Shown here: positions 41,332 through 56,317 of the stretch, one piece after another
Layout of the letters: the number at the start of each line of letters is the position of its first letter
Position numbering within the stretch: position 1 is the stretch's first letter
Source of the DNA: Acidobacteriota bacterium
Lineage (GTDB): Bacteria > Acidobacteriota > UBA6911 > RPQK01 > JADFOI01
Reading direction: 5' to 3'
DNA length: 64,000 nucleotides
Assembly: GCA_963663035.1 (NCBI GenBank)
Contig: OY760074.1
Span: forward strand, 1,248,001-1,312,000
Program-made: the position numbers and the translations under genes
Notes under the pieces: model-generated
Database searches by the model: none
The model's input: only the letters and a program-made list of their open reading frames with translations
What the model was told of the DNA's origin: nothing

Positions 41332-43824
41332 ATGAAAAACCTGAGTCCCATGATGCTCCAGTATCATGATATCAAGCTGAAACATCCCGGCATGCTGTTG
41401 TTTTTCCGCCTGGGCGATTTCTACGAGATGTTCTACGAAGATGCCGTCCTGGCCAGCCGCGAGTTGGAGATTACCCTCACCTCCCGCCATCGTGACCGGG
41501 CTGGCGAGGAGATTCCCATGTGCGGGATTCCCTATCATGCCCTCAACGGCTATCTGGCCCGGTTGATCAAGAAGGGGCACAAGGTGGCGATCTGTGAGCA
41601 GGCGGAAGACCCTCGTCTGGTAAAAGGGCTTGTTCGTCGCGAAGTCACCAGGATCGTGACACCCGGTACGGTCATTGAAGAGGGCGTCCTGGACTCGAGA
41701 GAGAACAATTTCATTGCCGGCCTTTTTGAGACAGAAGAGCGGGTGGGAGCTTCTTTTCTGGATCTTTCCACCGGAGAGTTCCTGCTCACCGAGTTTTCAG
41801 GAACCCAAGCCTGGCAGGAGATGCAGCAGGAACTCCTGCACTTCCGCCCCCGTGAGCTGATTCTGGCAGAGGCCGATCAAGAGAGAGTCGCAAGCCAGGT
41901 TCCTGCCCACCTGCAGCCCAGCGTGCTCAACACCGCTCAGTCCGACTGGACCTTCAATCTGGATTACTGCAGGCGAATCCTGCTGGAGCATTTCCATGTC
42001 TCCACTCTGGAAGGCTTTGGGCTCAACGGGCAAAAGGCCGCGATTTCTGCAGCGGGAGCCCTGCTTCACTATGTCAAGCATACCCAAAAGTCCCCACTGA
42101 CTCATATTACCCATCTGAGTCTTAGTGAACCCGTTGGTGTCCTGAAGCTGGACGACTCTACGGTGGAGAATCTCGAGCTGGTGAAGGGCTTTGACGGGAA
42201 CAAGCGATGGACTCTCCTGGCCATTCTGGACCTGACGAAAACGGCTATGGGAGCGCGTCTGCTTCGCTCCTGGATGCTGCGCCCAGGGCTGGACCTGACC
42301 CAGATCAACGAGCGCCTGGATGCCGTTCAGGAACTCTCTGAATCGGTGGTGGGAATGGATCGCCTGGGCAAGGTCCTACACAGTATTCATGATTTAGAGC
42401 GACTCCTGGGCCGAGTTACCATGGAGACGGCCAATGCCCGAGACCTGCTGGCTGTCAAGGAGTCTCTCGAGCAGCTTCCTGCGCTCTCTCAACTGCTTGA
42501 GGGCTACGGCAGTGGCTTGTTGTGTCCTGATCTGGATCTTCTTGAGGATCAGGTGCAATTGCTGGAACAAGCCATCGCCCAGGATCCTCCGGTGAGCTTG
42601 AATGAAGGAGGGATCATTCGAGCGGGTTTTCATTCAGAGTTGGATGAACTCCGCGAGATCACTCGTTCGGGGAAATCTTTCATTGCTCGTCTGGAAGCTC
42701 AGGAGCGTGAAAGGACTGCTATTCCTTCCCTCAAGGTGAAATACAACAGGGTCTTCGGCTATTTTATCGAGGTCACCAAGGCCCATCTGAATTCCGTACC
42801 CCAAGACTACATCCGCAAACAAACACTGGTTGGATCCGAGCGCTATATCACCCCGGAACTCAAAGAGTACGAGGAGAAGGTCCTCACGGCCCAAGAAAAG
42901 ATTGACGAGCTTGAGAAACGTCTGTTCGTAGAACTCCGCCAGCAGGTGGGTCAACAAGCCCCACGTATTCAACAGACGGCTCAGACTATTGCACGAGTCG
43001 ACTGCTTGTTGTCTCTGGCACAGGCAGCCAAGAAATATCGATACGTTCGGCCCCAGCTGGATGAGAGCCAGGATCTGGCTATTGAAGGGGGACGTCATCC
43101 GGTGGTTGAGCTGAAAAACAGCGAACCGTTTGTCCCCAACGATCTCTCTTGCCAGGCGACTCAGGATCAGCTCTTGATTCTCACCGGGCCCAATATGGGC
43201 GGAAAATCGACCTACCTTCGGCAAAATGCACTCATCGTGATCATGGCTCAGATGGGGTCCTTTGTTCCGGCTGATGCGGCTCGAGTCGGCCTGGTAGACC
43301 GGATTTTCACTCGTGTGGGTGCCAGCGACAATCTGGCCCAGGGGCGGTCCACCTTTATGGTGGAAATGATCGAGACGGCCAATATCCTCAATTCTGCCAC
43401 CAGGCGGAGTCTAATTCTGCTGGATGAGGTCGGGCGCGGGACGGCGACTTTTGACGGGTTGTCTATTGCCTGGTCGGTAGCAGAGTATCTGCTCACCCAG
43501 GAAGCTCGAAGGGCAAGAACAGTATTCGCGACCCATTATCACGAGTTGACCAAATTGGAGGTCCTTTACGAAGGTGCCAAGAACTATTGCGTCACCGTCC
43601 AGGAATCCGATCAGAAGATCGTTTTCTTTCACCGCGTGGTTCCAGGCGTGGCCAACAAGAGTTATGGAATCGAGGTGGCTCGCCTGGCCGGTTTGCCCCA
43701 GGGAGTCATTGGTCGAGCTCGAGAGATCCTTTCCCGCCTGGAGCGCAAGGAACTCAAGCTTTTGGGCCACTCACGTACCGTCGCTGCTGCCGTAACAGAC
43801 GAGCTGCAGCATAAACTGTTTTGA
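41332..43824 (+). CDS. mutS: DNA mismatch repair protein MutS
   Basis: FRLGDFYEMF, TGPNMGGKSTYLRQ, STFMVEM, DEVGRGT, FATHYHEL. Confidence 0.96.
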   Translation: MKNLSPMMLQYHDIKLKHPGMLLFFRLGDFYEMFYEDAVLASRELEITLTSRHRDRAGEEIPMCGIPYHALNGYLARLIKKGHKVAICEQAEDPRLVKGLVRREVTRIVTPGTVIEEGVLDSRENNFIAGLFETEERVGASFLDLSTGEFLLTEFSGTQAWQEMQQELLHFRPRELILAEADQERVASQVPAHLQPSVLNTAQSDWTFNLDYCRRILLEHFHVSTLEGFGLNGQKAAISAAGALLHYVKHTQKSPLTHITHLSLSEPVGVLKLDDSTVENLELVKGFDGNKRWTLLAILDLTKTAMGARLLRSWMLRPGLDLTQINERLDAVQELSESVVGMDRLGKVLHSIHDLERLLGRVTMETANARDLLAVKESLEQLPALSQLLEGYGSGLLCPDLDLLEDQVQLLEQAIAQDPPVSLNEGGIIRAGFHSELDELREITRSGKSFIARLEAQERERTAIPSLKVKYNRVFGYFIEVTKAHLNSVPQDYIRKQTLVGSERYITPELKEYEEKVLTAQEKIDELEKRLFVELRQQVGQQAPRIQQTAQTIARVDCLLSLAQAAKKYRYVRPQLDESQDLAIEGGRHPVVELKNSEPFVPNDLSCQATQDQLLILTGPNMGGKSTYLRQNALIVIMAQMGSFVPADAARVGLVDRIFTRVGASDNLAQGRSTFMVEMIETANILNSATRRSLILLDEVGRGTATFDGLSIAWSVAEYLLTQEARRARTVFATHYHELTKLEVLYEGAKNYCVTVQESDQKIVFFHRVVPGVANKSYGIEVARLAGLPQGVIGRAREILSRLERKELKLLGHSRTVAAAVTDELQHKLF

Positions 43825-45446
43825 GCTTTCTTCGTCGCTACTGGCTTTTGCTGCTTCTGGCGCTTCCTTTCTTTGTGGCTCTGGACGACTCGTCGCTCTG
43901 GGACAGCAATGAAGCCTTCTACGCCCAAACTCCGCGTGAGATGATCGAGCGGGGCGACTGGTCAGTTCCCTACTTCAACGGAAGACCCCGCCTGACCAAA
44001 CCTCCCCTTTCCTATTGGGTGGTGGGCCTTTTTTACCAAATCTTCTCGCCTTCGGTCTTCTGGGAGCGTTTTCCGCTGGCCCTGCTGGCCTATGGATCGG
44101 TTCTGGCTGTCTTTGTCAGCGGTAAGGGTCTCTATGACGAAGAGGTTGCTCTGTGGGCTGCTGGTATCTTTGCCACAACCTTCCGCTTTCTGATTCTGGG
44201 CCGCCGGCTGATGATTGACATCCTCCTGCTGTTTTGCCTGCTGTGGGCCATCACCTGTTTTCTTTCCTGGATGCGGTCGCACAAAAAGAGTCAGTTCATT
44301 CTGGCCAGCTTCTTGTTTGGCCTGGGGTTTTTAGCCAAAGGGCCCGTTGCCTTCCTTCCCCTCATCTTCCTGGGGTTCTATCTGTGGATCCGTGGTGAGA
44401 TTCATCAACTGCGTAAGGCTCCCTGGTTAAGCGGAGGGCTGATCTGCCTCTTCCTGTGCTCCTTCTGGTTCGTGCTTGTGAGCCTCGAGATGGGTTGGGA
44501 ACCCGTGCTGGACTTCATCTTCCGGGAAAATATCGATCGCTTCCTGTCTCTGAACCTGGGTCCACAGCGCGGGCCCTTTTATTATGTGGGGGTTTTTCTG
44601 GGCGATTTCTTCCCCTGGTCATTGCTTTTTCCGGCAGCAGTGACCTGGACCCTGCTCAATATGAACAAGAGCGCAGATGAAGGAGAAAACCGCCACTGGA
44701 TACTGCTGAGCCTTTGGATAGGAACCTATTTTCTCTTCTTCTCCTTTTCTCACAACAAGCAGGAATACTATATTTTGCCTCTCTATCCGGCAGCAGCGCT
44801 GTGGGTGGCCACTTACCTGAAGCGCGCTCGTCCCTCCACCCTCCTGACAGGAGGCGTGGGAGGCCTGATGATGGTCTTCATTCTGCTGCTTTTCTTGATC
44901 GGACAGGTCTTGTTTGAGGAGGCCGGACTGTGGATCCCCCTTCTTCTGATTCCTCTTGTGGTGTGGGGTCTTGTGGACCGCCGCTACAACCTCATGATAG
45001 CCGCATTGTCCCTGTTTTACTTTGCTTCTTTTGCGCTCTACTTGAGACCGTTGGAACAGTACAGACCTGTTTATCACTTCGCTCAGAGGATCCGGGAAAG
45101 CACCACTCAGGATGAGAGGACCTTAGACTTTCAAGCCGGGTACTACAAATTTTCGGCGCCGAGCCTGGCCTTTTATCTCGAGCAGCCCATTTTTGAGGTG
45201 TTCGATCCTCAAGCCGCTGTCGATCTTCTGGAGTCGGAAGTTGCAGTCTATATGATTGTCAGACCTGAGGATTATTCGGAACTGGTAGAGGCGACTGACC
45301 GTCCCCTGAAAATTGTAGAAGTGCGGCCAAACCTATATACTACGCCGCGTACTCTGATCGAAGGATTCCGCCGTGGCCAACTTGACAACCTCCGAGAAAG
45401 CTGGACACCTCCCATCTATCTCATCACAAACCGAAGAAGCGACTGA
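43821..45446 (+). CDS. ArnT/PMT-family membrane glycosyltransferase
   Basis: E..YA...REM...GDW.VP.FNG.PRL.KPPL.YW; KGP; K..YYILP.YP. Confidence 0.88.
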   Translation: MSFLRRYWLLLLLALPFFVALDDSSLWDSNEAFYAQTPREMIERGDWSVPYFNGRPRLTKPPLSYWVVGLFYQIFSPSVFWERFPLALLAYGSVLAVFVSGKGLYDEEVALWAAGIFATTFRFLILGRRLMIDILLLFCLLWAITCFLSWMRSHKKSQFILASFLFGLGFLAKGPVAFLPLIFLGFYLWIRGEIHQLRKAPWLSGGLICLFLCSFWFVLVSLEMGWEPVLDFIFRENIDRFLSLNLGPQRGPFYYVGVFLGDFFPWSLLFPAAVTWTLLNMNKSADEGENRHWILLSLWIGTYFLFFSFSHNKQEYYILPLYPAAALWVATYLKRARPSTLLTGGVGGLMMVFILLLFLIGQVLFEEAGLWIPLLLIPLVVWGLVDRRYNLMIAALSLFYFASFALYLRPLEQYRPVYHFAQRIRESTTQDERTLDFQAGYYKFSAPSLAFYLEQPIFEVFDPQAAVDLLESEVAVYMIVRPEDYSELVEATDRPLKIVEVRPNLYTTPRTLIEGFRRGQLDNLRESWTPPIYLITNRRSD

Positions 45447-46416
45447 GGCTGCACTGGAGCTCTCAATCATCATTCCGGTTTTCAATGAAGCCCAGACTCT
45501 TCAGCCGCTCTATGATCAACTCAAGTCAAGCCTTCAACCCTGGGAATCCAGCTGCGAAATCCTCTTCATCGATGATGGAAGTACCGATGGGAGCACCCAG
45601 GAGCTCCGGCGCCTGGCTGGATTGGACCCGAAGGTGCGGGTCCTGGAGTTCGTCCGCAACTTCGGACAAACCGCTGCCATTGCCGCCGGATTCGACCACG
45701 CCCGAGGGCAGATCATTATTCCTCTGGACGCGGATCTTCAAAATGACCCTCAGGATATTCCCCTTATTATGGAAAAGCTTGAGGAAGGTTACGATGTGGT
45801 CAACTGCTGGAGACAAGATCGGAAAGACCCCTGGCTGACCCGGATCTTTCCCTCTCGCCTGGCCAATCGATTGATCAGCTGGATTGGTGGCGTCCCTCTA
45901 CATGATTACGGCTGTACCTTGAAGGGCTATCGGCGGGATACGGTGAGGCACATTCGCCTCTACGGTGAGATGCATCGATTCATTCCCATCTTTGCCACCT
46001 GGGCTGGAGCCCGGGTGGCGGAAATCCCGGTCCGCCATCATCCTCGTCGTTTCGGACAGTCCAAGTACGGACTGCTCCGCACCGTGAAGGTACTCCTGGA
46101 CTTGATCACGGTGAAGTTTCTGGGAAGTTTCTCCACCAAACCCATGTATCTTTTCGGGGGTCTCGGTCTGCTCTCTTTTTTGGGAGGGGCAGTACTGAGT
46201 GGTGTGACCCTCTACCAGAAACTCTTTGAGGCTGTGAAGGCCCATCGCAATCCCCTGCTCTTGCTCTCCATCTTCCTCTTTACCGCTGGGCTCCAATTCA
46301 TCCTTTTTGGACTGGTGGCTGAGCTCATCGTGCGCACCTACCATGAATCACAGGATAAACCGACTTATCTTCTGAGGGGAAGGAGTCAGGAGGTAGGAGG
46401 CAGGAGGCAGGAGTAA
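45373..46416 (+). CDS. GT2 polyprenol-phosphate glycosyltransferase (ArnC-like)
   Basis: SIIIPVFNE, DDGSTDGS, RNFGQTAA, DADLQNDP; two C-terminal TMs; start uncertain. Confidence 0.9.
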   Translation: MANLTTSEKAGHLPSISSQTEEATEAALELSIIIPVFNEAQTLQPLYDQLKSSLQPWESSCEILFIDDGSTDGSTQELRRLAGLDPKVRVLEFVRNFGQTAAIAAGFDHARGQIIIPLDADLQNDPQDIPLIMEKLEEGYDVVNCWRQDRKDPWLTRIFPSRLANRLISWIGGVPLHDYGCTLKGYRRDTVRHIRLYGEMHRFIPIFATWAGARVAEIPVRHHPRRFGQSKYGLLRTVKVLLDLITVKFLGSFSTKPMYLFGGLGLLSFLGGAVLSGVTLYQKLFEAVKAHRNPLLLLSIFLFTAGLQFILFGLVAELIVRTYHESQDKPTYLLRGRSQEVGGRRQE

Positions 46417-48223: not shown

Positions 48224-49576
48224 TCAGGCTGCTTTTTGGAGGGAGGCCTCGGCGCTGAGCCGCCTGTGTTCTCGCACAATTGCCACCACGATGGCGAGCC
48301 AGAGCAGTGTGAAGAGCACGTTGGCGATTGCGTAGCTTTGGATGCCGAAGGCCAGTTGTACACCCACAAACACGACCCCGGCCTGCAACATATCCCCGAC
48401 CCGCCAGAAAAAGGTGTCGATAGCTGCTTTGGCCTTGTACTTGGCCTCCCGGCTGGTCAGCAAAAAGAGGGCGTGCCGGGCGGTGTTATTGATGGAGTAA
48501 TCGGTGCTGTTCTCGAGCATTTTCACCATCCGGATGACGCCCAGGATGGGTGTCGCGATCATCAGGCCGTAGCTGCCCAGTGCCAGGCAGGGCAATATGA
48601 AGAGCGCCCCCCGGACCCCGATGTACTTGAAGATTCGGGAGACCAGGAACAACTGGAATAAGAAGCCCAGCAAATTGACCCAACCATAGAAGTCGCCAAA
48701 GAATTGCCCGATTATCACCTGCTGCTCGGCGATGTCGGCGGTTTGCTGTCCAACTGAAGCGAGCACCACCTTATCCAGAATGAACCCGCCCGTGGTGTTC
48801 ACGACATTGAGGAGCAAGACCGAAATCGCGATCAGAAGCAAATATCGCTCCGAAAAAACGAGCTTGAATCCACCCTCTTTTCCCAACGGTTTCTCAGCAG
48901 TCGCGGCTTTTTCCGGTGTGGCCCTTTCCCGCTCGCGGCGGTGAATTGCTTGGCTGATCACAATACTGGTACCAATACCGGCTGCGGCCACCAGCATAAG
49001 CGAGTAGGGTGCTGTGGCCGGGTCAAATTGACCGAACAGCCAGCTAGCCATCTTCGCCCCCAGCCAGGCGCCTAGCGCGGCTCCGACTCCCACAATAGGA
49101 AACAGCCGCTTGCCCTGTTCCTCTGTAAAGAGATCGTTAGCGAAGGCCCAAATTTGCGCCATCACCAGGAGACTAAAGATGCTGACCCAGATAAAAAAGG
49201 CCGCCCCAACCTGAACTCCGGCCAAACCCAGGAAGTAGAAGATTCCGAGATGAGAGATGAAAAACAGTGTGACCCAGGTGATGAGCCGAATCCGGTTGAC
49301 CCGAGCCGCAAAGCCGCCATAAGCCGGCACCAGGACAAGTAAGATCACCGCCGTCCCAGCGTAGAGGTAAGCTTTGACTTCCGCTCCACCTTCGGTCAGG
49401 ATCAAGGCATCCCGCACGGGCTTAAGAATGTAATAGGAGGCCAGCACCACAAAGACATTCAGCGCGAGAAGCACGACCGTGAGCCCTTCACCCGCTTTCA
49501 CCTGGGTGAAGATCGAAAGGGCACGGTCCAGAAGCCCTTTCCTGCCCTCCGTAATCGGAATTGGTGACGATTCCAT
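48224..49576 (-). CDS. NTT/TLC-family nucleotide (ATP/ADP) transporter
   Basis: YYILKPVRDAL, WAFANDLF..EQGKRLF, DYSINNTAR..LFL....E.KYKAKAAIDTFF.R.GD. Confidence 0.85.
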   Translation of the reverse strand: MESSPIPITEGRKGLLDRALSIFTQVKAGEGLTVVLLALNVFVVLASYYILKPVRDALILTEGGAEVKAYLYAGTAVILLVLVPAYGGFAARVNRIRLITWVTLFFISHLGIFYFLGLAGVQVGAAFFIWVSIFSLLVMAQIWAFANDLFTEEQGKRLFPIVGVGAALGAWLGAKMASWLFGQFDPATAPYSLMLVAAAGIGTSIVISQAIHRRERERATPEKAATAEKPLGKEGGFKLVFSERYLLLIAISVLLLNVVNTTGGFILDKVVLASVGQQTADIAEQQVIIGQFFGDFYGWVNLLGFLFQLFLVSRIFKYIGVRGALFILPCLALGSYGLMIATPILGVIRMVKMLENSTDYSINNTARHALFLLTSREAKYKAKAAIDTFFWRVGDMLQAGVVFVGVQLAFGIQSYAIANVLFTLLWLAIVVAIVREHRRLSAEASLQKAA

Positions 49577-49622
49577 ATTTCCGGGAATTATAACCCGACA
49601 GCCACACAATCGCCAGCCTACG

Positions 49623-49830
49623 CCAGGACTACGCATAAGTTTTCTACTGCAGTGCCGCAATCATCCACGCTGACTGCGTTGTGCGACCCGCAAGCGGGTA
49701 CCCCTTGGGCTCCTCGGCGTACTACATGAGTACGCCTGCGGGGCCCGACCCGCAAGCGGGTACCCCTTGCACGCCTGGTCATCGCGGCGCCTGCGGCACT
49801 TCGTCACGAGAACCTATGCCATAGTACCGG
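49623..49830. mobile_element. MITE (long form)
   Basis: Near-identical to 56616-56760 plus an internal segment bounded by duplicated GACCCGCAAGCGGGTACCCCT. Confidence 0.8.
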
Positions 49831-49874
49831 CCTGTTGACGGCGGCTTCTCCTGTCGGAAATAATGGGGTCCGCT

Positions 49875-50720
49875 ATGGATATTTTCCAAGAGATCGTCCG
49901 GCTGCGCAGTGAAGGCCGCAAAGCCGTCCTGGCCACCGTTGTCCGCTGGCTGGGGAGTACACCGCGCCGCGACAACGCCAAAATGCTTATCCTGGAGGAC
50001 GGCTCGACCATGGGTTCCGTGGGGGGAGGCTCAACGGAGGCAGCGGTGCTGGAGGAAGCTCAAGTTGTTCTGGAGACTGAGCAAGCGTCGCTCAAGAAGT
50101 TCGAGCTCACTCAGCGGGAAGCGGCACAGGATGGACTCATCTGCGGAGGCACCTTGGAAGTCTTCGTAGAACCGATCCTGCCCGATCCCAAGGTGATCCT
50201 CATGGGCGCTGGGCACCTGGGACAGGCCATAGCAAAGGCAGCCCACCGGGTGGGTTTTGCGGTGGCCGTGGTCGATGACCGCGCCTCCTTTGCCAATTCC
50301 GAGCGTTTTCCACAAGCTCAAGAGACGATTGTCGCCCCCTTAGAGGAGAGCCTGGACTCAGTCACTGTCACCAAAAACAGCTTTATCCTCATCGTGACGC
50401 GTGGCCACGGCCACGACCAGGTGGCTCTGGAAGCGGCTGTACAGACACCGGCACGCTATGTGGGCATGGTGGGAAGCCGGCGCAAGATTGGAATCATCGT
50501 CAAAAACCTGCTGGACAAAGGCATTCCTGCGGAGGCTTTTTTTCACCTCTATGCCCCCATCGGATTGGAAATAGGCTCGGAAACACCCCAGGAGATTGCC
50601 GTCAGCGTGGTGGCAGAGCTGATCGCCATTCGCAAGGGGGTCCACCAGCGGAGCAAGAAACAACTCTTTGCCATGAAGCTCATCGAAGAAGCCCGCGCCA
50701 AAGCTCAAGAAGTGGGCTAA
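49875..50720 (+). CDS. xdhC: XdhC/CoxI family molybdoenzyme maturation factor
   Basis: GSTPR...AKM, GSVGGG, CGG.LEVFVEP, YVGMVGSRRK, APIGLEIGSETPQEIAVS. Confidence 0.88.
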   Translation: MDIFQEIVRLRSEGRKAVLATVVRWLGSTPRRDNAKMLILEDGSTMGSVGGGSTEAAVLEEAQVVLETEQASLKKFELTQREAAQDGLICGGTLEVFVEPILPDPKVILMGAGHLGQAIAKAAHRVGFAVAVVDDRASFANSERFPQAQETIVAPLEESLDSVTVTKNSFILIVTRGHGHDQVALEAAVQTPARYVGMVGSRRKIGIIVKNLLDKGIPAEAFFHLYAPIGLEIGSETPQEIAVSVVAELIAIRKGVHQRSKKQLFAMKLIEEARAKAQEVG

Positions 50721-50815
50721 CGCGCTTCGCCTGTCAGCTGTCAGTGGTCAGGGGCCCGCAAGCTAAAGCCTGCGGTTCTGACGGAGCCGTGGGCTTCAGC
50801 CCACGGGCCAGGCTC

Positions 50816-52015
50816 TCAGTTGTTAGCGTCTAGGTAAAGAGCTGTGAATTTCCCGTCCTGAATCTCCAGTGCCGAGGCCTTGCCCCCCTTGTAAAAGCTT
50901 GAGAGCATCCCGCTATCGATCAGAAAGAGTTTTTCCTCAAACCGTGCCTGGATGTGCCCGGGGAGCTGCGGCGTGTGTCCCACCACGAAATGCTTGGCAT
51001 CATAGGCTTCCAGCAGCCGTGCCAGGTGCCTTGCGCCCTCCTCTGTTGACCACTCGGCAAATCCGCGAAACCACAGGGGCCCATCCGGATGTGTGCTGAG
51101 CCAGCTGCCGAGGGTCAGAAACTCTTTCAGGATCGTGACCTGCTCTGGCTCGGGTCGGCCCTCTTTCCTTGCCCGCTCCTCTTGTCGCTCAACTTCTGCC
51201 TGGGCTGTTGAGGTGATCTCATTCAAGTCAAAGAAGGACAGAATCAGCTTTTCTTTCACCATGTACTCGGTATAGTTGTCAAACGCCTCAATCTCCGCTT
51301 GGATTCGCTGGTTGATCTCCTTCAATTTCAAGGAGGCAAGATTGGGATGGATGCCGCCATGAAGGAAAATGGTATCGGCTACCTGCACGACTGCCGGCCG
51401 CTCCCGCAGCCAACGGCCATACTTCCCTTTGGGCTCCATGGCCTTCCGGTATTCCAGAAAGCCGGGCGGGTGGGCCTGCATCCATTGCCTTTCAGACTCT
51501 GAAGTGATCTGGCTTGGCTCGTCCAGGGCCTCGGCCCGCCGTTTGAGTAGTTTCACGTAGTCCTGATAGGCCTCCTGGCGGCGTTTCTCCGACTTTTCGT
51601 CTGCGAAACTGAGATAGGTTTCTGGTGCAACATAGCGCATGTCTCCCTGGAGAATTATCATTTCATGGTTACCCAGCAAAACGATGACCTCTCCGTCACT
51701 TTTGGGCGCCTCCTTTTCCAGTGCCATCAACAGATCCATGACTTGGCGATCTTTGGGTCCACGATCAAGCATGTCCCCCGTCTGCACCAGGGTTGTATCC
51801 CCACCCGTCCAATGGTGCTGGTGGTCAATGATCTCCAATTCCTGAAGAATCGCCACCAGGGAATCGAAGTCACCATGAATGTCGCCCACGGCCAGCAGAC
51901 GGGCTGAAGCGTTTGCTCCCATGGCCGGGGGCAGCAGCAAGACAGCCGAGAGTGCGACCAGCAGGCCTAAGCCAGCGAGTTTTCCGTAAATACGATTGAA
52001 ACGCGTGCCCATCAT
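50816..52015 (-). CDS. Exported PPP-family metallophosphoesterase (Shewanella-like phosphatase type)
   Basis: Signal peptide; GDIHGD, GDMLDRG, LGNHE, HGG, GPLWFRG, VVGHT, IDSG. Confidence 0.88.
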   Translation of the reverse strand: MMGTRFNRIYGKLAGLGLLVALSAVLLLPPAMGANASARLLAVGDIHGDFDSLVAILQELEIIDHQHHWTGGDTTLVQTGDMLDRGPKDRQVMDLLMALEKEAPKSDGEVIVLLGNHEMIILQGDMRYVAPETYLSFADEKSEKRRQEAYQDYVKLLKRRAEALDEPSQITSESERQWMQAHPPGFLEYRKAMEPKGKYGRWLRERPAVVQVADTIFLHGGIHPNLASLKLKEINQRIQAEIEAFDNYTEYMVKEKLILSFFDLNEITSTAQAEVERQEERARKEGRPEPEQVTILKEFLTLGSWLSTHPDGPLWFRGFAEWSTEEGARHLARLLEAYDAKHFVVGHTPQLPGHIQARFEEKLFLIDSGMLSSFYKGGKASALEIQDGKFTALYLDANN

Positions 52016-52081
52016 CGATCTGCTTTCATTCTATCCCAGAAGGAGAGTTTGGAGGGAGAGTTCGGAGGGAGAGCTCGGGGC

Positions 52082-52978
52082 CTATCTCATCGTGTAGAGC
52101 ACTCCGCCTTCGCCGTTTTCGTCGATGAGTTTCTGGATGTGCTCCACCAGCAGGCGCCTTCGCTCCAGCAGGCCACTGAGTTCATAAGGGCGCACATAGT
52201 CCTCGAGTCGCTCCCGGACAAGAGCTTCATCCAGCGTCTGCAGTTTTTCCCACAGCTTCCGATCGACAAAGGTGATCAGCTCCGGATTCTGCAGCTGCTT
52301 CCAGCGCCGAAAGGTTCGACCGTGATCGACCATCCAGATCTTCCAGTCAGAGTCGATCAGAAGGTTGCCTATATTTCGGTCCTCGTTGTAGATGAGATTG
52401 TCGAAAAGATACAAGGTTTGAGTTCGCATCAGCCAACGCCATCGCTGGAGGCCCTCGCTGGGCACCTCAACATTCTCCTTTATGAGGTCCCCTTGCATCC
52501 TGGTGTTCTCAACCCAGATTTGTACCGTGCCCCTGCTGCCCTGGACCCTACGTGCCACGGCGGGGGGGACCGTGTCCATGCCCAGCAGCTTGGCCAGTTC
52601 ATAGGCCGCGCACTCGAAATCAGCGTCATCGCGGAAGAAATATTTGGTCGTGCCGTCAGCCAGTTTCTTCTCGGGGCTTTCTTCATGATTGTCACGAAAG
52701 ATGGCGTGCATCTGGACCCCATCCTTCTCCAGCAAGAGTTGGTAGAAGCTGTTGATTCCCTCTCCGATGCGTCTTCGCGAGACGACCTCGCCTGTTCGCA
52801 AGAACTCCTCGATTTCTTCATTGCTCTGAAAGGGCAGCGGTTGTAGGTCAGCATCCAGCCACACGCTCGAGCTGGCCGTCTGGGCCGGGCTGAGTGATAC
52901 TGCCGAGAGTCCAACCAGCAGCCCGATGACGCAAAGTCCCATGGAGTTTCGAGGAATAAGGTTGAAGAGTTTGGACAT
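52082..52978 (-). CDS. Exported atypical kinase-fold protein (PI3/4K-, HipA- or FAM20-like)
   Basis: Signal peptide ending SPA-Q; IGEG, ECAAYELA.LLG...VPP.V, FDNLIYNEDRNIGN, VDHG. Confidence 0.75.
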   Translation of the reverse strand: MSKLFNLIPRNSMGLCVIGLLVGLSAVSLSPAQTASSSVWLDADLQPLPFQSNEEIEEFLRTGEVVSRRRIGEGINSFYQLLLEKDGVQMHAIFRDNHEESPEKKLADGTTKYFFRDDADFECAAYELAKLLGMDTVPPAVARRVQGSRGTVQIWVENTRMQGDLIKENVEVPSEGLQRWRWLMRTQTLYLFDNLIYNEDRNIGNLLIDSDWKIWMVDHGRTFRRWKQLQNPELITFVDRKLWEKLQTLDEALVRERLEDYVRPYELSGLLERRRLLVEHIQKLIDENGEGGVLYTMR

Positions 52979-53092
52979 ATTCGCCCTCCAGATTTATTCT
53001 AATGCTACGACTTTGAGAGTTCAAAGGCAATAGAAAGTCTGCCAGATGGCCTCAGCGCTGCTCTTCCCTCGACCCTCGGTTCTTTTTTGGAT

Positions 53093-56000
53093 ATGATCCC
53101 GCCCAACAGGGCAACTCAAAAGGGAGGTGAAACCCTGAATCGCTTACTACGGCTTTTCTCCGTACGCTCCCAGGAAGCGCTCCCGGCACTGCTCATGGCT
53201 GTGTACTTCTTCCTGGCTATGGCCTGTGTCAGTATGGTGAAATCCCTACAGATTGCCCTCTATTTGAGCCGGGTGGGCTTTGATTGGCGGCTGCCCTCTC
53301 TGTACACAGTTCTGGTTCTACTCTCCGGTCTGATTGTTCTCCTTTACCGTTACCTGGCTCGCCAATACTCTCATTTGGGCATAGCCCTCAGCACCCTTGT
53401 CTTCTTCATCCTCAGCCTCGTATTTTTTTGGTTCCTGGTGGGAAGGGAGCAATTGTGGGTCTACCTTACCTTTTATATCTGGGGAGGCCTCTTCAGCTTA
53501 CTACTCCCCACCCTGGGTTGGGTGATTGCGCTCGATCTTTACAATACACGAGAGGCCAAACGTCTTTTTGCCCTGTTTGGAACAGGGGGGATTCTAGGCG
53601 GCGCCTGCGGCGGCTATTACATCGCCCTGGTCTCGGGGACGCTCGATGCCAGGTGGCTGTTCATACACGTCCTTGTTACCTTGTTTATTTTGCAAGGAGT
53701 ACTGCTGGCAATCTATCGCGTTAAAGGCAGCCGCTTGCTGCTCAGGCACCCAACCCCCTCCGAGACTCTTCCCTCGCCGACTACCGCCTCTGCCCTGCGC
53801 GACCTCCTGGCATCGCCCTATCTGACCTATCTGGCCGGGATTGTCCTGGTCTCTGCCTTTACCACCACCCTGATTGACTTGCAATATCAGTGGTTCTTAG
53901 AACGACGATACCCGGGTTCGGAGGAACAAATCACCTGGTTTGTGGGGACACTGCTGGGGACCATGTACGTGTTCTCAGCACTTTTTCAGTTGTTTGCCAC
54001 TCGTTCCGTCCTGCGCAATTTTGGTGTTGGTGTGGCCCTGCTGGTCCTTCCTCTGGCCCTTCTGGGCGGGTCAGCGAGTATTGTCATTCTTGCCGGCTTT
54101 GGGGCCGTCGTGACTTTCAAAGGCATCGATGGATTTCTCCGCCCTTCCATCCATCGGACCGGCCTGGAGGTGCTTTATGTACCCATCTCAAGTCCTCAAA
54201 CCGTAACCCTGAAGAGCTTCATTGATCTGGCCGTCTTCCGTTTCGGCGATGCTCTGGGAGCAGCTTTTTTTCTGGCAGCTACCAGTCTGTTTGTCACTCC
54301 GGTGGCAGCCATTCAGACCACAATTCTGCTGGCAGCTCTTGGCTGGGCCTTCCTGGCCCTCCAGCTGGGGAGGCAGTATGTGGAAAGCCTGCGCCAAAGC
54401 CTGGAGGGCAAGTCAGCCCGGCGCCTGCCGCCCTCCCTTTTGTTGGAAGGGGCCGGGGCTCAGATTGCTCTATTAGAGGCACTGGAGAGCCTCAACCCCA
54501 ACAAGGTTCACTTCGCCCTGGAACAACTCGCGGCGGTCAATCCGAGCAGTGAAGAGGGCACAACAACAGAGCTTCCCGTTCATGGGGAAGAGCTTTTGCA
54601 GTCTCAGGTGCCCAGCCTTTACCCGGTCAGTCAGGGATGGTTAGAAACAGTGGAACCCCTGGTCAATCATGTGGATTCCCGAGTGGGCGCTGCTGCTTTT
54701 CACGTGTTAGTGCGTCAGGATCCCACCAAATATTTGGAACGTCTGAAGGAGAAGCTGGAGTCCAAAGGGGTGCCTGAAACAGTGTATTTGCACTACCTGG
54801 ACCTCTATAGCGAGGACCCCGCCAGTTTTATCACGCCTTCTCAGCTGTTGCAGTGGAGCCGGGATGAGCGAGCGGACATGGTTTCTATCCTGGCTCGTTT
54901 GATGGGGAAGATCAAAAGCCCCGCTTTTCTCCCTGTCCTCAGGACGTGGATGAGCGGACTGCCCGGGGAACCGGCACGAGCCGCCATTGAAGCCATCGGG
55001 CAATATGCAGAGCCGCGCCTTCTGGACGCTCTCATCAGTCTTCTGGAACCCAACTGGAGTCGTCCGGCGGCATGTCGGGCCCTCATTCATTATGGCGATG
55101 CGGCCGTTTCACGTCTCCGAGAGCTGCTTCGATACCCGGCAGTTGGACCTTTCATTGCACGGCAAATTCCCTTCATTCTCACCCGCATCAACTCATCATC
55201 CTCACGAGCAGGACTTGTGACAGCCCTTTATTCAGCTGATCCCGCGGTCTCCTACAGTGCCCTCAAGGGTCTGAACAAAATTCGAGACTCCCAGGATCTT
55301 TCCTATACCCAGGGTTCCTTTATGCCGCTGCTGCAAATATGGGCCAAACAGTACTATGAACTGGTGAATATTGAATCTATGGTAAGCAAGAGAGAGGGAA
55401 ACGTCTGGGAACTGCTCCGTAAAACGAACGGTGAGCGAATGGACTGGACAATTGAAAAGATCTTTCGAGGCTTGGAGCTGTTCCTGCCCCGCGGAGATGC
55501 CTATTTTTCCTATCTGGGATACACCAGCAGCAAGCAGGAACTTCGGGAAAACGCCATCGAGCTGATCGATGCCAGGATCAAAGGTGAACTCAGACAGACC
55601 TTACTTCCCATCTTCAGCGGGGACAGTCGGCACGAGCTGGCCCGCACAGGACGTCGGCTGTTTCATCTTCCCTCTGATCGGGACGGAATCGCTCTGGATG
55701 CACTCTCGGACGTGGACTCCTGGCTGCGATGCTGTGTCATGGCCGCCCTGAGAGAGCAGCCCAGCCCGATCCTTGAAAAAGCTGTGCGGATGGCTTGCCA
55801 AGACGTTGATTCTGTGGTTCAAGAGACCGCCCAATGGGTCTTGACAAGCATGGCAACAGCTCCTGCGATACATGATGAGAGGAGATCTATTATGCTGACA
55901 ACAATTGAAAAAGTCCTTCTTCTGCAAGAGGTGGAGCTTTTCAGTTCCGCTTCAACAGATCACCTGGCCCAATTGGCCCAACTCTGTCAGGAAAAGCTGT

Positions 56001-56317
56001 ACAAGGCGGGCGAGAGTTTGTTTCAGAAGGGAGAGCCCCATTCAAAGTTCTTTCTTCTAGTCGAAGGTTCTGTGAGCCTGGATGACCAGGAAAATGAAGA
56101 AACAGTGGGAAAATGCGCGCTGGATTTCTGGTCCTGGGTGGGCCAGACTCCGCACGAGGTGAGCGCCAAATGTGTGGACGATTGTACTGTCTTGCTGCTC
56201 CCCTTTCAGGACCTGGTTGACCTTTTGTGCGGCGAACCGGGTCTGAGCTGGGCGATTCTCCAGTATCTCGCCAAGGCAGGTCGGGTCATGGCCCCAAACT
56301 TTCCTACCGTTGCATAA
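53093..56317 (+). CDS. NTT-family transporter fused to HEAT repeats and a cNMP-binding-like domain
   Basis: N-terminal ~12 TM with YNTREAKRLF and LKSFID..VFRFGD; helical repeats; C-terminal IEKVLLLQEVELFS...LFQKGE; start uncertain. Confidence 0.78.
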   Translation: MIPPNRATQKGGETLNRLLRLFSVRSQEALPALLMAVYFFLAMACVSMVKSLQIALYLSRVGFDWRLPSLYTVLVLLSGLIVLLYRYLARQYSHLGIALSTLVFFILSLVFFWFLVGREQLWVYLTFYIWGGLFSLLLPTLGWVIALDLYNTREAKRLFALFGTGGILGGACGGYYIALVSGTLDARWLFIHVLVTLFILQGVLLAIYRVKGSRLLLRHPTPSETLPSPTTASALRDLLASPYLTYLAGIVLVSAFTTTLIDLQYQWFLERRYPGSEEQITWFVGTLLGTMYVFSALFQLFATRSVLRNFGVGVALLVLPLALLGGSASIVILAGFGAVVTFKGIDGFLRPSIHRTGLEVLYVPISSPQTVTLKSFIDLAVFRFGDALGAAFFLAATSLFVTPVAAIQTTILLAALGWAFLALQLGRQYVESLRQSLEGKSARRLPPSLLLEGAGAQIALLEALESLNPNKVHFALEQLAAVNPSSEEGTTTELPVHGEELLQSQVPSLYPVSQGWLETVEPLVNHVDSRVGAAAFHVLVRQDPTKYLERLKEKLESKGVPETVYLHYLDLYSEDPASFITPSQLLQWSRDERADMVSILARLMGKIKSPAFLPVLRTWMSGLPGEPARAAIEAIGQYAEPRLLDALISLLEPNWSRPAACRALIHYGDAAVSRLRELLRYPAVGPFIARQIPFILTRINSSSSRAGLVTALYSADPAVSYSALKGLNKIRDSQDLSYTQGSFMPLLQIWAKQYYELVNIESMVSKREGNVWELLRKTNGERMDWTIEKIFRGLELFLPRGDAYFSYLGYTSSKQELRENAIELIDARIKGELRQTLLPIFSGDSRHELARTGRRLFHLPSDRDGIALDALSDVDSWLRCCVMAALREQPSPILEKAVRMACQDVDSVVQETAQWVLTSMATAPAIHDERRSIMLTTIEKVLLLQEVELFSSASTDHLAQLAQLCQEKLYKAGESLFQKGEPHSKFFLLVEGSVSLDDQENEETVGKCALDFWSWVGQTPHEVSAKCVDDCTVLLLPFQDLVDLLCGEPGLSWAILQYLAKAGRVMAPNFPTVA

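Follow-up and report, generated by a model that had tools for sequence, protein, structure and literature searches.

Linkage of a Fam20-like kinase and a Shewanella-like phosphatase, both predicted to be exported, with NTT-HEAT nucleotide carriers: a candidate periplasmic phosphorylation module in Acidobacteriota

The lumen of the eukaryotic secretory pathway imports ATP through AXER/SLC35B1, an ATP/ADP exchanger of the endoplasmic reticulum and Golgi, and the Fam20 kinases depend on this exchanger. Fam20C is a protein kinase, Fam20B is a xylose kinase and Fam20A is a pseudokinase. In bacteria the periplasm is taught as free of ATP, with envelope processes powered from the inner membrane (TonB, Lpt, Lol, proton-motive force), and CtkA of Helicobacter pylori is a secreted kinase that acts on host cells, which supply the ATP. 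To our knowledge, NTT carriers are the only family of ATP/ADP exchangers of bacterial cell membranes. Fusions of an NTT domain to HEAT repeats, with or without a cyclic-nucleotide-binding domain (NTT-HEAT(-cNBD)), have been described, free-living bacteria included; the available part of that paper gives their function as unknown, includes 3 sequences from Acidobacteria and puts forward an uptake of ATP that is tuned by cyclic AMP (Major, Embley and Williams 2017; PMC5381601). The same part of the paper does not speak of NTT-HEAT genes lying next to genes for exported kinases or phosphatases (PMC5381601). In the literature we found no link between NTT-HEAT carriers and exported kinases or phosphatases and no description of bacterial Fam20-like periplasmic kinases, and no text on bacterial homologues was found in the available part of a Fam20 review (PMC7948968). 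Here a locus of an Acidobacteriota bacterium is described (positions 48224-56317 of a 64,000-nt stretch of contig OY760074.1, called the window below; the genome, G000, is a single 3.59-Mb contig), in which genes for a putative exported kinase (K) and a putative exported phosphatase (P) lie beside the gene of an NTT-HEAT carrier (N).

K (52082-52978, minus strand), which has the motifs NEDRNIGN and VDHGR, lies upstream of P (50816-52015, minus strand) in the same orientation, with 66 nt between the two genes. K and N are divergent and 108 nt apart. N (53087-56317, plus strand) codes for a protein of 1076 aa, in which a TLC/NTT transporter domain (53087-54466) is followed by a HEAT-repeat domain (54467-55876) and by a fused cyclic-nucleotide-binding-type (cNMP) domain (55877-56317). 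A second, stand-alone carrier of the NTT/TLC family, the small NTT, is encoded at 48224-49660 on the minus strand by an open reading frame (ORF) of 478 aa. An earlier note, made from the letters of the window, had described K (with the motifs DRNIGN and DHG) and P as a co-oriented pair divergent from N, with a stand-alone NTT about 1.2 kb from the pair; the genes, their coordinates and their orientations were borne out, and the distance between the small NTT and P was measured as 1156 nt. Judged by gene linkage, P, K and the NTT-HEAT carrier are the core set of a real functional module; its other parts, a stand-alone NTT and the cNMP domain, vary.

Indications for such a module come from other genomes. 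In a survey of 41 genomes (that of the window and 40 relatives, including the unpublished G017, which is without K or P), K was found in 23 and P in the same 23 and in one more (G022). All 23 K-bearing genomes have at least one NTT-family match, which is partial only in G029. In 11 genomes K adjoins P, and the two genes may point in the same direction, diverge or converge. Clustering of the genes was counted from two sides. On the K side, the best 79 of 579 relatives in a genome collection were searched by tblastn (bit score >= 45); 44 of these 79 loci have P at most 6 kb from K, 31 have an NTT-like gene within that distance and 28 have both. When the count was confined to the 41 K loci with 6 kb or more of sequence to either side, P was present in 26, P together with an NTT in 20 and neither in 15. 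On the carrier side, an NTT-HEAT alignment (A2) was used and the best 80 of 483 metagenome relatives were taken; within 3 kb of NTT-HEAT, P was found in 52 loci, K in 47, both in 44 and neither in 25. For the 23 loci with a flank of at least 3 kb these numbers are 16 with both, 1 with P only and 6 with neither. The locus sets consist of best-scoring loci, many of them interrelated and several from the same genome, and some long-read metagenome-assembled genomes (MAGs) among them are frameshifted; ORFs in GC-rich loci were chosen by a picker weighted by GC content at third codon positions (GC3). Furthermore, 7 of the 14 rows of A2 come from K-linked loci, which biases the carrier-side search toward those clades.

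The order of the genes is not constant. A P-K fusion followed by NTT-HEAT was observed, as well as the order P, NTT-HEAT, K; in one locus (L056) K is convergent with NTT-HEAT, and P precedes NTT-HEAT on the opposite strand with an overlap of 4 nt. These varied gene orders point to maintained linkage rather than inherited synteny, and because the arrangement recurs across families of the phylum it lies far beyond chance. No conserved fourth gene, as a possible substrate, is shared in the flanks of the seven annotated operon loci. The expectation that the three families co-occur was thus confirmed, by the presence of K and P in the same 23 of 41 genomes, by fusions and by clustering seen from the K and the NTT-HEAT sides.

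Fusion of the two enzymes is common among the longer K homologues, 21 of 22 of which carry PF00149 at lengths of 659-790 aa. The K family comprises 5848 cluster representatives at E <= 0.001 (953 at E <= 1e-30), and the named members are mostly Acidobacteriota, with some Latescibacterota. Among the best 150 of the 5848 representatives, 39 proteins of at least 594 aa have the kinase at the C-terminus. An N-terminal Metallophos domain was found in 35 of 38 long representatives scanned, which with the previously known P0132 makes 36 of the top 150; the remaining long representatives are a K-K tandem (P0144) and two without a family. Four fusion sequences that were inspected all have a signal-peptide-like leader, a phosphatase domain, a Pro/Ala-rich linker and a kinase domain. 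A stand-alone K homologue, P0071, holds a short phosphatase-like remnant (V-A-V-G-D-I-H) between its leader and the kinase domain (columns ~210-230 of the K family alignment, A1), and looks derived from a P-K fusion by deletion. Fusions of P with NTT-HEAT were also considered as candidates (frames of 1348-1601 aa in L064, L075, L081, L085, L091 and L106), and were rejected as out-of-frame, Arg-rich read-through or frameshifted assemblies. P genes in those long-read MAG contigs shift frame midway, likely through assembly indels.

K is, by model and profile comparison, a remote homologue of Fam20 and of type II phosphatidylinositol 4-kinases (PI4KII). An AlphaFold model of K, built on an alignment of 39 sequences, has a pLDDT of 87.6. 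Its top VIA match is 5xoo (Z 20.4, rmsd 3.6, 240 residues aligned), and Fam20B, C and A as a group match with Z 20.4-18.7 over ~240 residues at an rmsd of 3.5-4.1 (Fam20C 19.9, Fam20A 18.8). Type II PI4-kinases form the second-best fold group (Z 18.6-17.6 over 213-229 residues; PI4K2B 18.6), followed at lower ranks by CtkA of H. pylori (Z 14.9), actin-fragmin kinase (12.0) and HipA-type kinases (~11.5). The best Foldseek match of the model has an E of 4.8e-10. The earlier note had suggested FAM20, CotH and PI4K for structural comparison; Fam20 and type II PI4K were indeed the closest folds, and CotH is not among the matches listed. At the level of sequence, the family profile A1 finds Fam20 in the PDB with E from 4e-6 to 1e-4 (Fam20A 4.2e-06, Fam20B 3.2e-05, Fam20C 1.4e-04) and PI4K2A with 0.0064. 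The family profile is required for this, as K as a single sequence gave chance-level matches only (E >= 1.2) against the PDB sequences. Pfam matches of K are weak (PI3_PI4_kinase 0.0036, HipA_2 0.0098); with PF00454 K scores 17.7 bits, under the gathering cut-off of 27.1, PF06702 (Fam20C) gave no match on K of the window at E up to 0.01, and NCBIfam TIGR03843 matches with 1.2e-17 but under its cut-off. The K-K tandem P0144 does exceed the PF06702 cut-off (29.4 against 26.8 bits), and some K homologues carry precomputed PF06702 or PF00454 labels.

The alignment of A1 with Fam20 spans the alphaC helix, the catalytic loop and the DFG-equivalent segment, with an E-AA-(Y/F) helix, an FD.LI.N.DR catalytic loop and a D-(N/H)-G-R-.-F segment in common. 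Residues D200, N205, D218, R221 and F223 are invariant in the 39 K sequences and across both K subfamilies, and D200, N205 and D218 align to the DRH and D-N-G-R-G-F segments of Fam20. The lysine of the Fam20A/B FKP motif, which we take to be the ATP-binding lysine of Fam20, aligns to R95 of K, a nearly invariant Arg whose place is taken by Gln in a soil subfamily; K does have E122. K thus appears to be an enzyme of Fam20/PI4KII type, a putative kinase whose nucleotide pocket is unusual. It is smaller than Fam20, with a mature domain of ~260 residues compared to 350-440. Fam20 has an N-terminal secretory leader and K a putative one, and Fam20 works, as K is predicted to work, outside the cytosol. 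Type II PI4-kinases, in contrast, are found on the cytosolic face of membranes and are without a signal peptide, whereas K has a signal-peptide-like leader. The lineages with K differ from the host of CtkA in being environmental MAG lineages with the gene beside a nucleotide carrier, and the system as a whole differs from that of Fam20 in its bacterial host and in its candidate ATP carrier, an NTT rather than an SLC35 protein.

The soil K subfamily (for example L118:4480-5301, L165:10446-11270, L182:10205-11029 and L143:9909-10760) retains the catalytic-loop Asp and Asn and the Asp of DF(S/T), and has Gln at Arg95, Asn at Glu122 and Ala/Pro at Arg201. Two or three soil K copies often flank a single pair of P and NTT-HEAT. 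Fam20C and Fam20A form a pair of active kinase and pseudokinase, of which this multi-copy arrangement is reminiscent. Related genomes have up to 6 K matches each. In the genome of the window one other K paralogue (C1:111016-111750, 44 % identity) is found beside tannase and amidohydrolase genes, and one other P paralogue (C1:214834-215721, 34 % identity) beside an LCAT-like lipase gene; neither has an NTT near (L027, L028).

The assignment of P is straightforward. The protein matches Metallophos with 7.9e-15 (56.2 bits, cut-off 21.5), and its best relatives with a solved structure are the cold-active Shewanella phosphatases 2zbm, 2z72 and 1v73 of the Shewanella-like PPP group (Shelphs), which align in three blocks with E 1e-28 (2zbm 9.5e-29). 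The metal-binding motifs of these enzymes align with P, which has the PPP motifs GDIHGD, GDMLDRG, GNHE, HGG and GH. P differs from the Shewanella enzymes by an insertion of ~60-70 residues (query 245-310) that separates the second aligned block from the third, and from Shewanella-like phosphatases in being genetically coupled, and often fused, to a kinase. Similarity to diadenosine tetraphosphatases of the ApaH type was also found, with E 1e-4 in the PDB and 3.9e-11, under the cut-off, in NCBIfam. In several families, at L017 (G028), L018 (G035), L020 (G029) and L026 (G031), P or the carriers adjoin a recurring set of genes, coding for DUF547, a small GT2, a pyridine-nucleotide-disulphide oxidoreductase, a VTT/DedA protein and a Methyltransf_31 protein.

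The N-termini of K and P both consist of a basic stretch, a hydrophobic stretch and a site of small residues (K ...SPAQT/ASSS, P ...PPAMG/ANAS), the hydrophobic segments lying by hydropathy at residues 4-22 of K and 13-31 of P. Export was judged by this hydropathy heuristic only. Of the 108 K homologues in which 25 or more residues precede the domain, 101 have a hydrophobic 12-mer leader at the N-terminus, as have 17 of 19 P-K fusions in which the GDxHG motif was located by pattern. As one leader precedes both domains in the fusions, P and K must be expected in the same compartment. The conserved leaders suggest that K and P are exported, and the earlier claim of signal peptides on both proteins is favoured, at the level of the heuristic, by the leaders of the K homologues and the single leader of the fusions.

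N is, by sequence, a true NTT homologue. Its TLC (1.7e-12; 47.3 bits, cut-off 21), HEAT_2 (3e-10) and cNMP_binding (5.7e-08) matches are each above cut-off, and crude hydropathy gives at least 10 hydrophobic segments in the TLC domain. N matches PDB entry 9j3n ('ADP,ATP carrier protein 1') with E 4.6e-09 and has the EAKR..ALFG.G motif in common with it; the EAKR..FG motif is conserved with the class I NTT exchangers to which the TLC domain is homologous (PamNTT1; 9j3n). The small NTT matches Pfam TLC with 2.6e-13 (50.1 bits, cut-off 21) and shares 26 % identity with the TLC domain of N. With N as query only two NTT-family matches were found in the genome, both being genes of this locus. N has TLC, HEAT and cNMP_binding in one ORF, the architecture of the NTT-HEAT-cNBD carriers of Major et al., whose split-ORF variant also occurs among the relatives, as far as the available part of that paper describes them (PMC5381601). 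In the window and a few relatives the cNMP domain belongs to the carrier ORF; in G018, G019, G020, G022, G025, G031 and G032 it forms a separate downstream ORF. The HEAT domain is kept in both NTT-HEAT clades. In G019, G031, G034, G037 and G040 the N orthologue has a small NTT as its neighbour. A complex prediction for the TLC domain of N (residues 1-460) with mature K (38-298), made with no control runs, scored 0.00 against a mark of 0.32 and is uninformative on binding. The parts of the locus are new members of known families, and NTT-HEAT fusions as such were already in print.

From these properties a mechanism can be proposed, to which we give a probability of about one half: K and P would form an extracytoplasmic phospho-transfer module, with NTT carriers coupling the compartment to the cytoplasmic adenylates and gating by the HEAT(-cNMP) part. 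The compartment would be extracytoplasmic, and most likely periplasmic. In it K, as a Sec-exported kinase, and P, as a Sec-exported phosphatase, would act on the same substrate, which may be a protein, a lipid or a glycan, and their actions would be either opposed or sequential. NTT carriers of the inner membrane would move ATP outward and ADP back, possibly with phosphate, while a cytoplasmic HEAT(-cNMP-type) module would gate the flow; the HEAT domain is placed in the cytoplasm because it comes after an MFS-type (major facilitator superfamily) carrier and before a cNMP-type domain. As counter-exchange would release ATP only against returned ADP, the loss would be limited. NTTs can co-transport phosphate with ADP, and in that case the phosphate released by the phosphatase would be recoverable too. 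The conserved trio suggests, short of showing, that ATP is fed into the periplasm; export of K and P, kinase activity, ATP as the carried substrate, its outward direction and the gating are all inferences.

Several findings weigh against this proposal. Exported ATP could leak through outer-membrane porins. The 15 of 41 well-flanked K loci have no P or NTT nearby, and as the loci were best-scoring and related, and A2 was biased, the counts are not independent samples. In G005, a genome of the same genus, the order of glycosyltransferases, Na/Ala symporter, P and K is kept while the small NTT, XdhC (see below) and N are absent from the site, so that no NTT adjoins P-K, though an NTT-HEAT-like gene is present on another contig. 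The carriers are distant relatives of the tested NTTs, with ~25-30 % identity to class I NTTs, and the small NTT (52.6 bits) and N (43.7 bits) both stay below the 387.2-bit cut-off of the NTP/NDP exchanger family TIGR00769. In K the pair of beta3 Lys and alphaC Glu appears as Arg95/Glu122, and in the soil subfamily as Gln/Asn; this replacement of the beta3 Lys implies atypical nucleotide binding, or that some copies are pseudokinases. According to the available part of the source, known class I NTTs import ATP and serve intracellular parasites and plastids, whereas the proposal needs the opposite net direction, and PamNTT1 is asymmetric with a preference for ATP import toward the side of its N-terminus, which by analogy argues against ATP export by the carriers considered here (PMC1951785). 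The interpretation given earlier, in which NTTs export ATP or recover ADP to fuel reversible phosphorylation in the envelope, therefore stands in part: the leaders are conserved and the families co-occur, but the analogy with PamNTT1 speaks against the direction.

This direction is the point at which an unlikely yet plausible alternative departs from the proposed export of ATP. The module would be real but its carrier would import: in the periplasm P and K would act on a compound from outside, phosphorylated or of nucleotide type, the carrier would take up its product or scavenged nucleotides, and K would be a binding or pseudokinase subunit or would use a donor other than exported ATP. The import by characterised NTTs and the asymmetry of PamNTT1 in the available part of the source (PMC1951785) agree with this, as do the match of the P family to ApaH-type diadenosine tetraphosphatases, the soil K subfamily without the beta3 basic residue and the alphaC Glu, and P being the gene most tightly coupled to NTT-HEAT in many loci. 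However, both K subfamilies keep the Asp and Asn of the catalytic loop and the metal-binding Asp without exception, which points to catalysis over mere binding; an extracytoplasmic kinase fold still needs a nucleotide; and the flanks of the seven annotated loci have neither a periplasmic binding protein nor a nucleotidase in common. These same flanks, with three genes only and no conserved fourth gene as substrate, fit an explanation in which K and P are periplasmic regulators that phosphorylate and dephosphorylate the carrier, at periplasmic loops of NTT-HEAT, or a partner, with locally released ATP. The operon spacing, with the 4-nt overlap of P and NTT-HEAT, and the large cytoplasmic regulatory domain of the carrier are in line with this, but the up to 6 K matches per genome and the 15 of 41 well-flanked loci without P or NTT suggest a wider substrate range, and K-P occurs without an adjoining carrier in G005; we regard it as improbable.

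The two remaining explanations dispense with an exported module. K and P might be cytoplasmic or act at the inner leaflet, for example as a lipid kinase and phosphatase with inward-facing anchors, in which case the link with NTTs would reflect ordinary nucleotide handling. The leaders of K and P were read by a heuristic, and type II PI4K, a lipid kinase of the cytoplasmic face, nearly equals Fam20 as a fold match (Z 18.6 vs 20.4). The Sec-like layout of basic, hydrophobic and small residues ahead of both domains and the single leader at the extreme N-terminus of the fusions nevertheless make this location very doubtful. Finally, the neighbourhood in the window could be incidental synteny of functionally unlinked genes, as might be read from the XdhC gene and the repeat element that interrupt the locus and from the absence of the NTT genes at the G005 site; fusions and recurrent clustering, in several gene orders and across families and metagenomes, contradict this, and we give it next to no weight.

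A second family was noticed at NTT-HEAT(-cNMP) carriers. NTT-HEAT-cNMP loci without K often have an Omp85-type gene followed by a gene, here called unk541, for a protein of ~540-580 aa without a family; this protein is encoded behind an Omp85-type gene and beside NTT-HEAT(-cNMP) carriers in L016:12577-14202, L026:10877-12616, L112, L113, L114, L127 and L133:5210-6874. L133 has both sets, in the order P, K, Omp85, unk541, NTT-HEAT. Unk541 has a leader, an invariant H-x-L-I-D-F-G segment and a C-terminal domain resembling fibronectin III. Its model is poor (pLDDT 60.5); the best matches are CtkA and Fam20C/A/B, with Z 9.6-9.2 over 212-237 residues (CtkA 9.6), which is near the noise zone of the tool, and the Foldseek E is 3e-3. 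A profile comparison gave no relation between unk541 and the K family (hhalign probability 0.9 %), searches of Pfam and of PDB sequences gave no match, and the family was not found in the genome of the window. Going by the model, unk541 may be a second exported kinase-like family tied to NTT-HEAT carriers.

The locus in the window holds five genes, in the order small NTT, XdhC, P, K and N. The XdhC-family maturation factor (49863-50720, plus strand), which was absent from the earlier note, was identified by its family match and lies, together with a repeat element of ~180 bp, in the 1156-nt gap between the small NTT and P. It is not part of the module and is flanked by the repeat element. In G009 (L021:6052-7443) a molybdopterin-binding oxidoreductase subunit follows P; with XdhC this is possibly a loose link to genes of Mo-enzymes, or a coincidence. 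The repeat element is found at 49640-49820, between the small NTT and XdhC, and also at 50754-50811. At least 40 copies with 84-97 % identity are present in the genome (202 candidates at first look), and the element includes a GC-rich hairpin, in two copies. In a DNA run the depth on the repeat is ~6500 compared to ~25 in the flanks, with a second spot of raised depth between the stops of XdhC and P. The small NTT has its listed TTG start within the repeat, so translation probably begins further downstream, at an ATG near 49576.

In the 108-nt region between K and N (52979-53086) promoter-like matches were found on both strands, by consensus matching only: 53024-52996 on the minus strand, and 52972-53000 and 53069-53097 on the plus strand. 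Three metatranscriptome runs gave contigs of full identity in XdhC (213 nt) and in the small NTT (154 nt, 49001-49154) and pieces on the repeat; no contig of these three runs fell on K, P or N, and they are uninformative on the expression of these genes. Just upstream, at 43821-46416, lie genes for two glycosyltransferases, one of the PMT_2 type (GT-C, ArnT/PMT-like) and one GT2 of the polyprenyl-phosphate type, which are syntenic with P-K in G005 (L013). They appear to be a periplasmic glycosylation pair, which might supply a glycan substrate.

The conserved operon offers a concrete hypothesis for the supply of ATP to the periplasm. It also gives a first functional context for the NTT-HEAT(-cNBD) carriers, which in the available part of the 2017 report stand unexplained in free-living bacteria (PMC5381601). 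The K family, a large group of bacterial homologues of Fam20 and type II PI4-kinases, bears on the origin of the kinases of the eukaryotic secretory pathway, and the module would bring to bacteria a form of lumenal phosphorylation, served by a dedicated nucleotide carrier, that is otherwise known only from eukaryotes. It is a tentative extension that many Acidobacteriota and some Latescibacterota would run ATP chemistry in the periplasm, with NTT-HEAT exporting ATP strictly against ADP (and phosphate) and with regeneration of these by K and P as a closed energy cycle. If the proposal is true, it would provide the first function for NTT-HEAT carriers of free-living bacteria and overturn the view of a periplasm without an ATP supply. 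The proteins of the K family would then be bacterial counterparts, and possibly ancestors, of the secretory-pathway kinases of eukaryotes, and unk541 in other NTT-HEAT loci would extend the principle of an exported kinase combined with a carrier.

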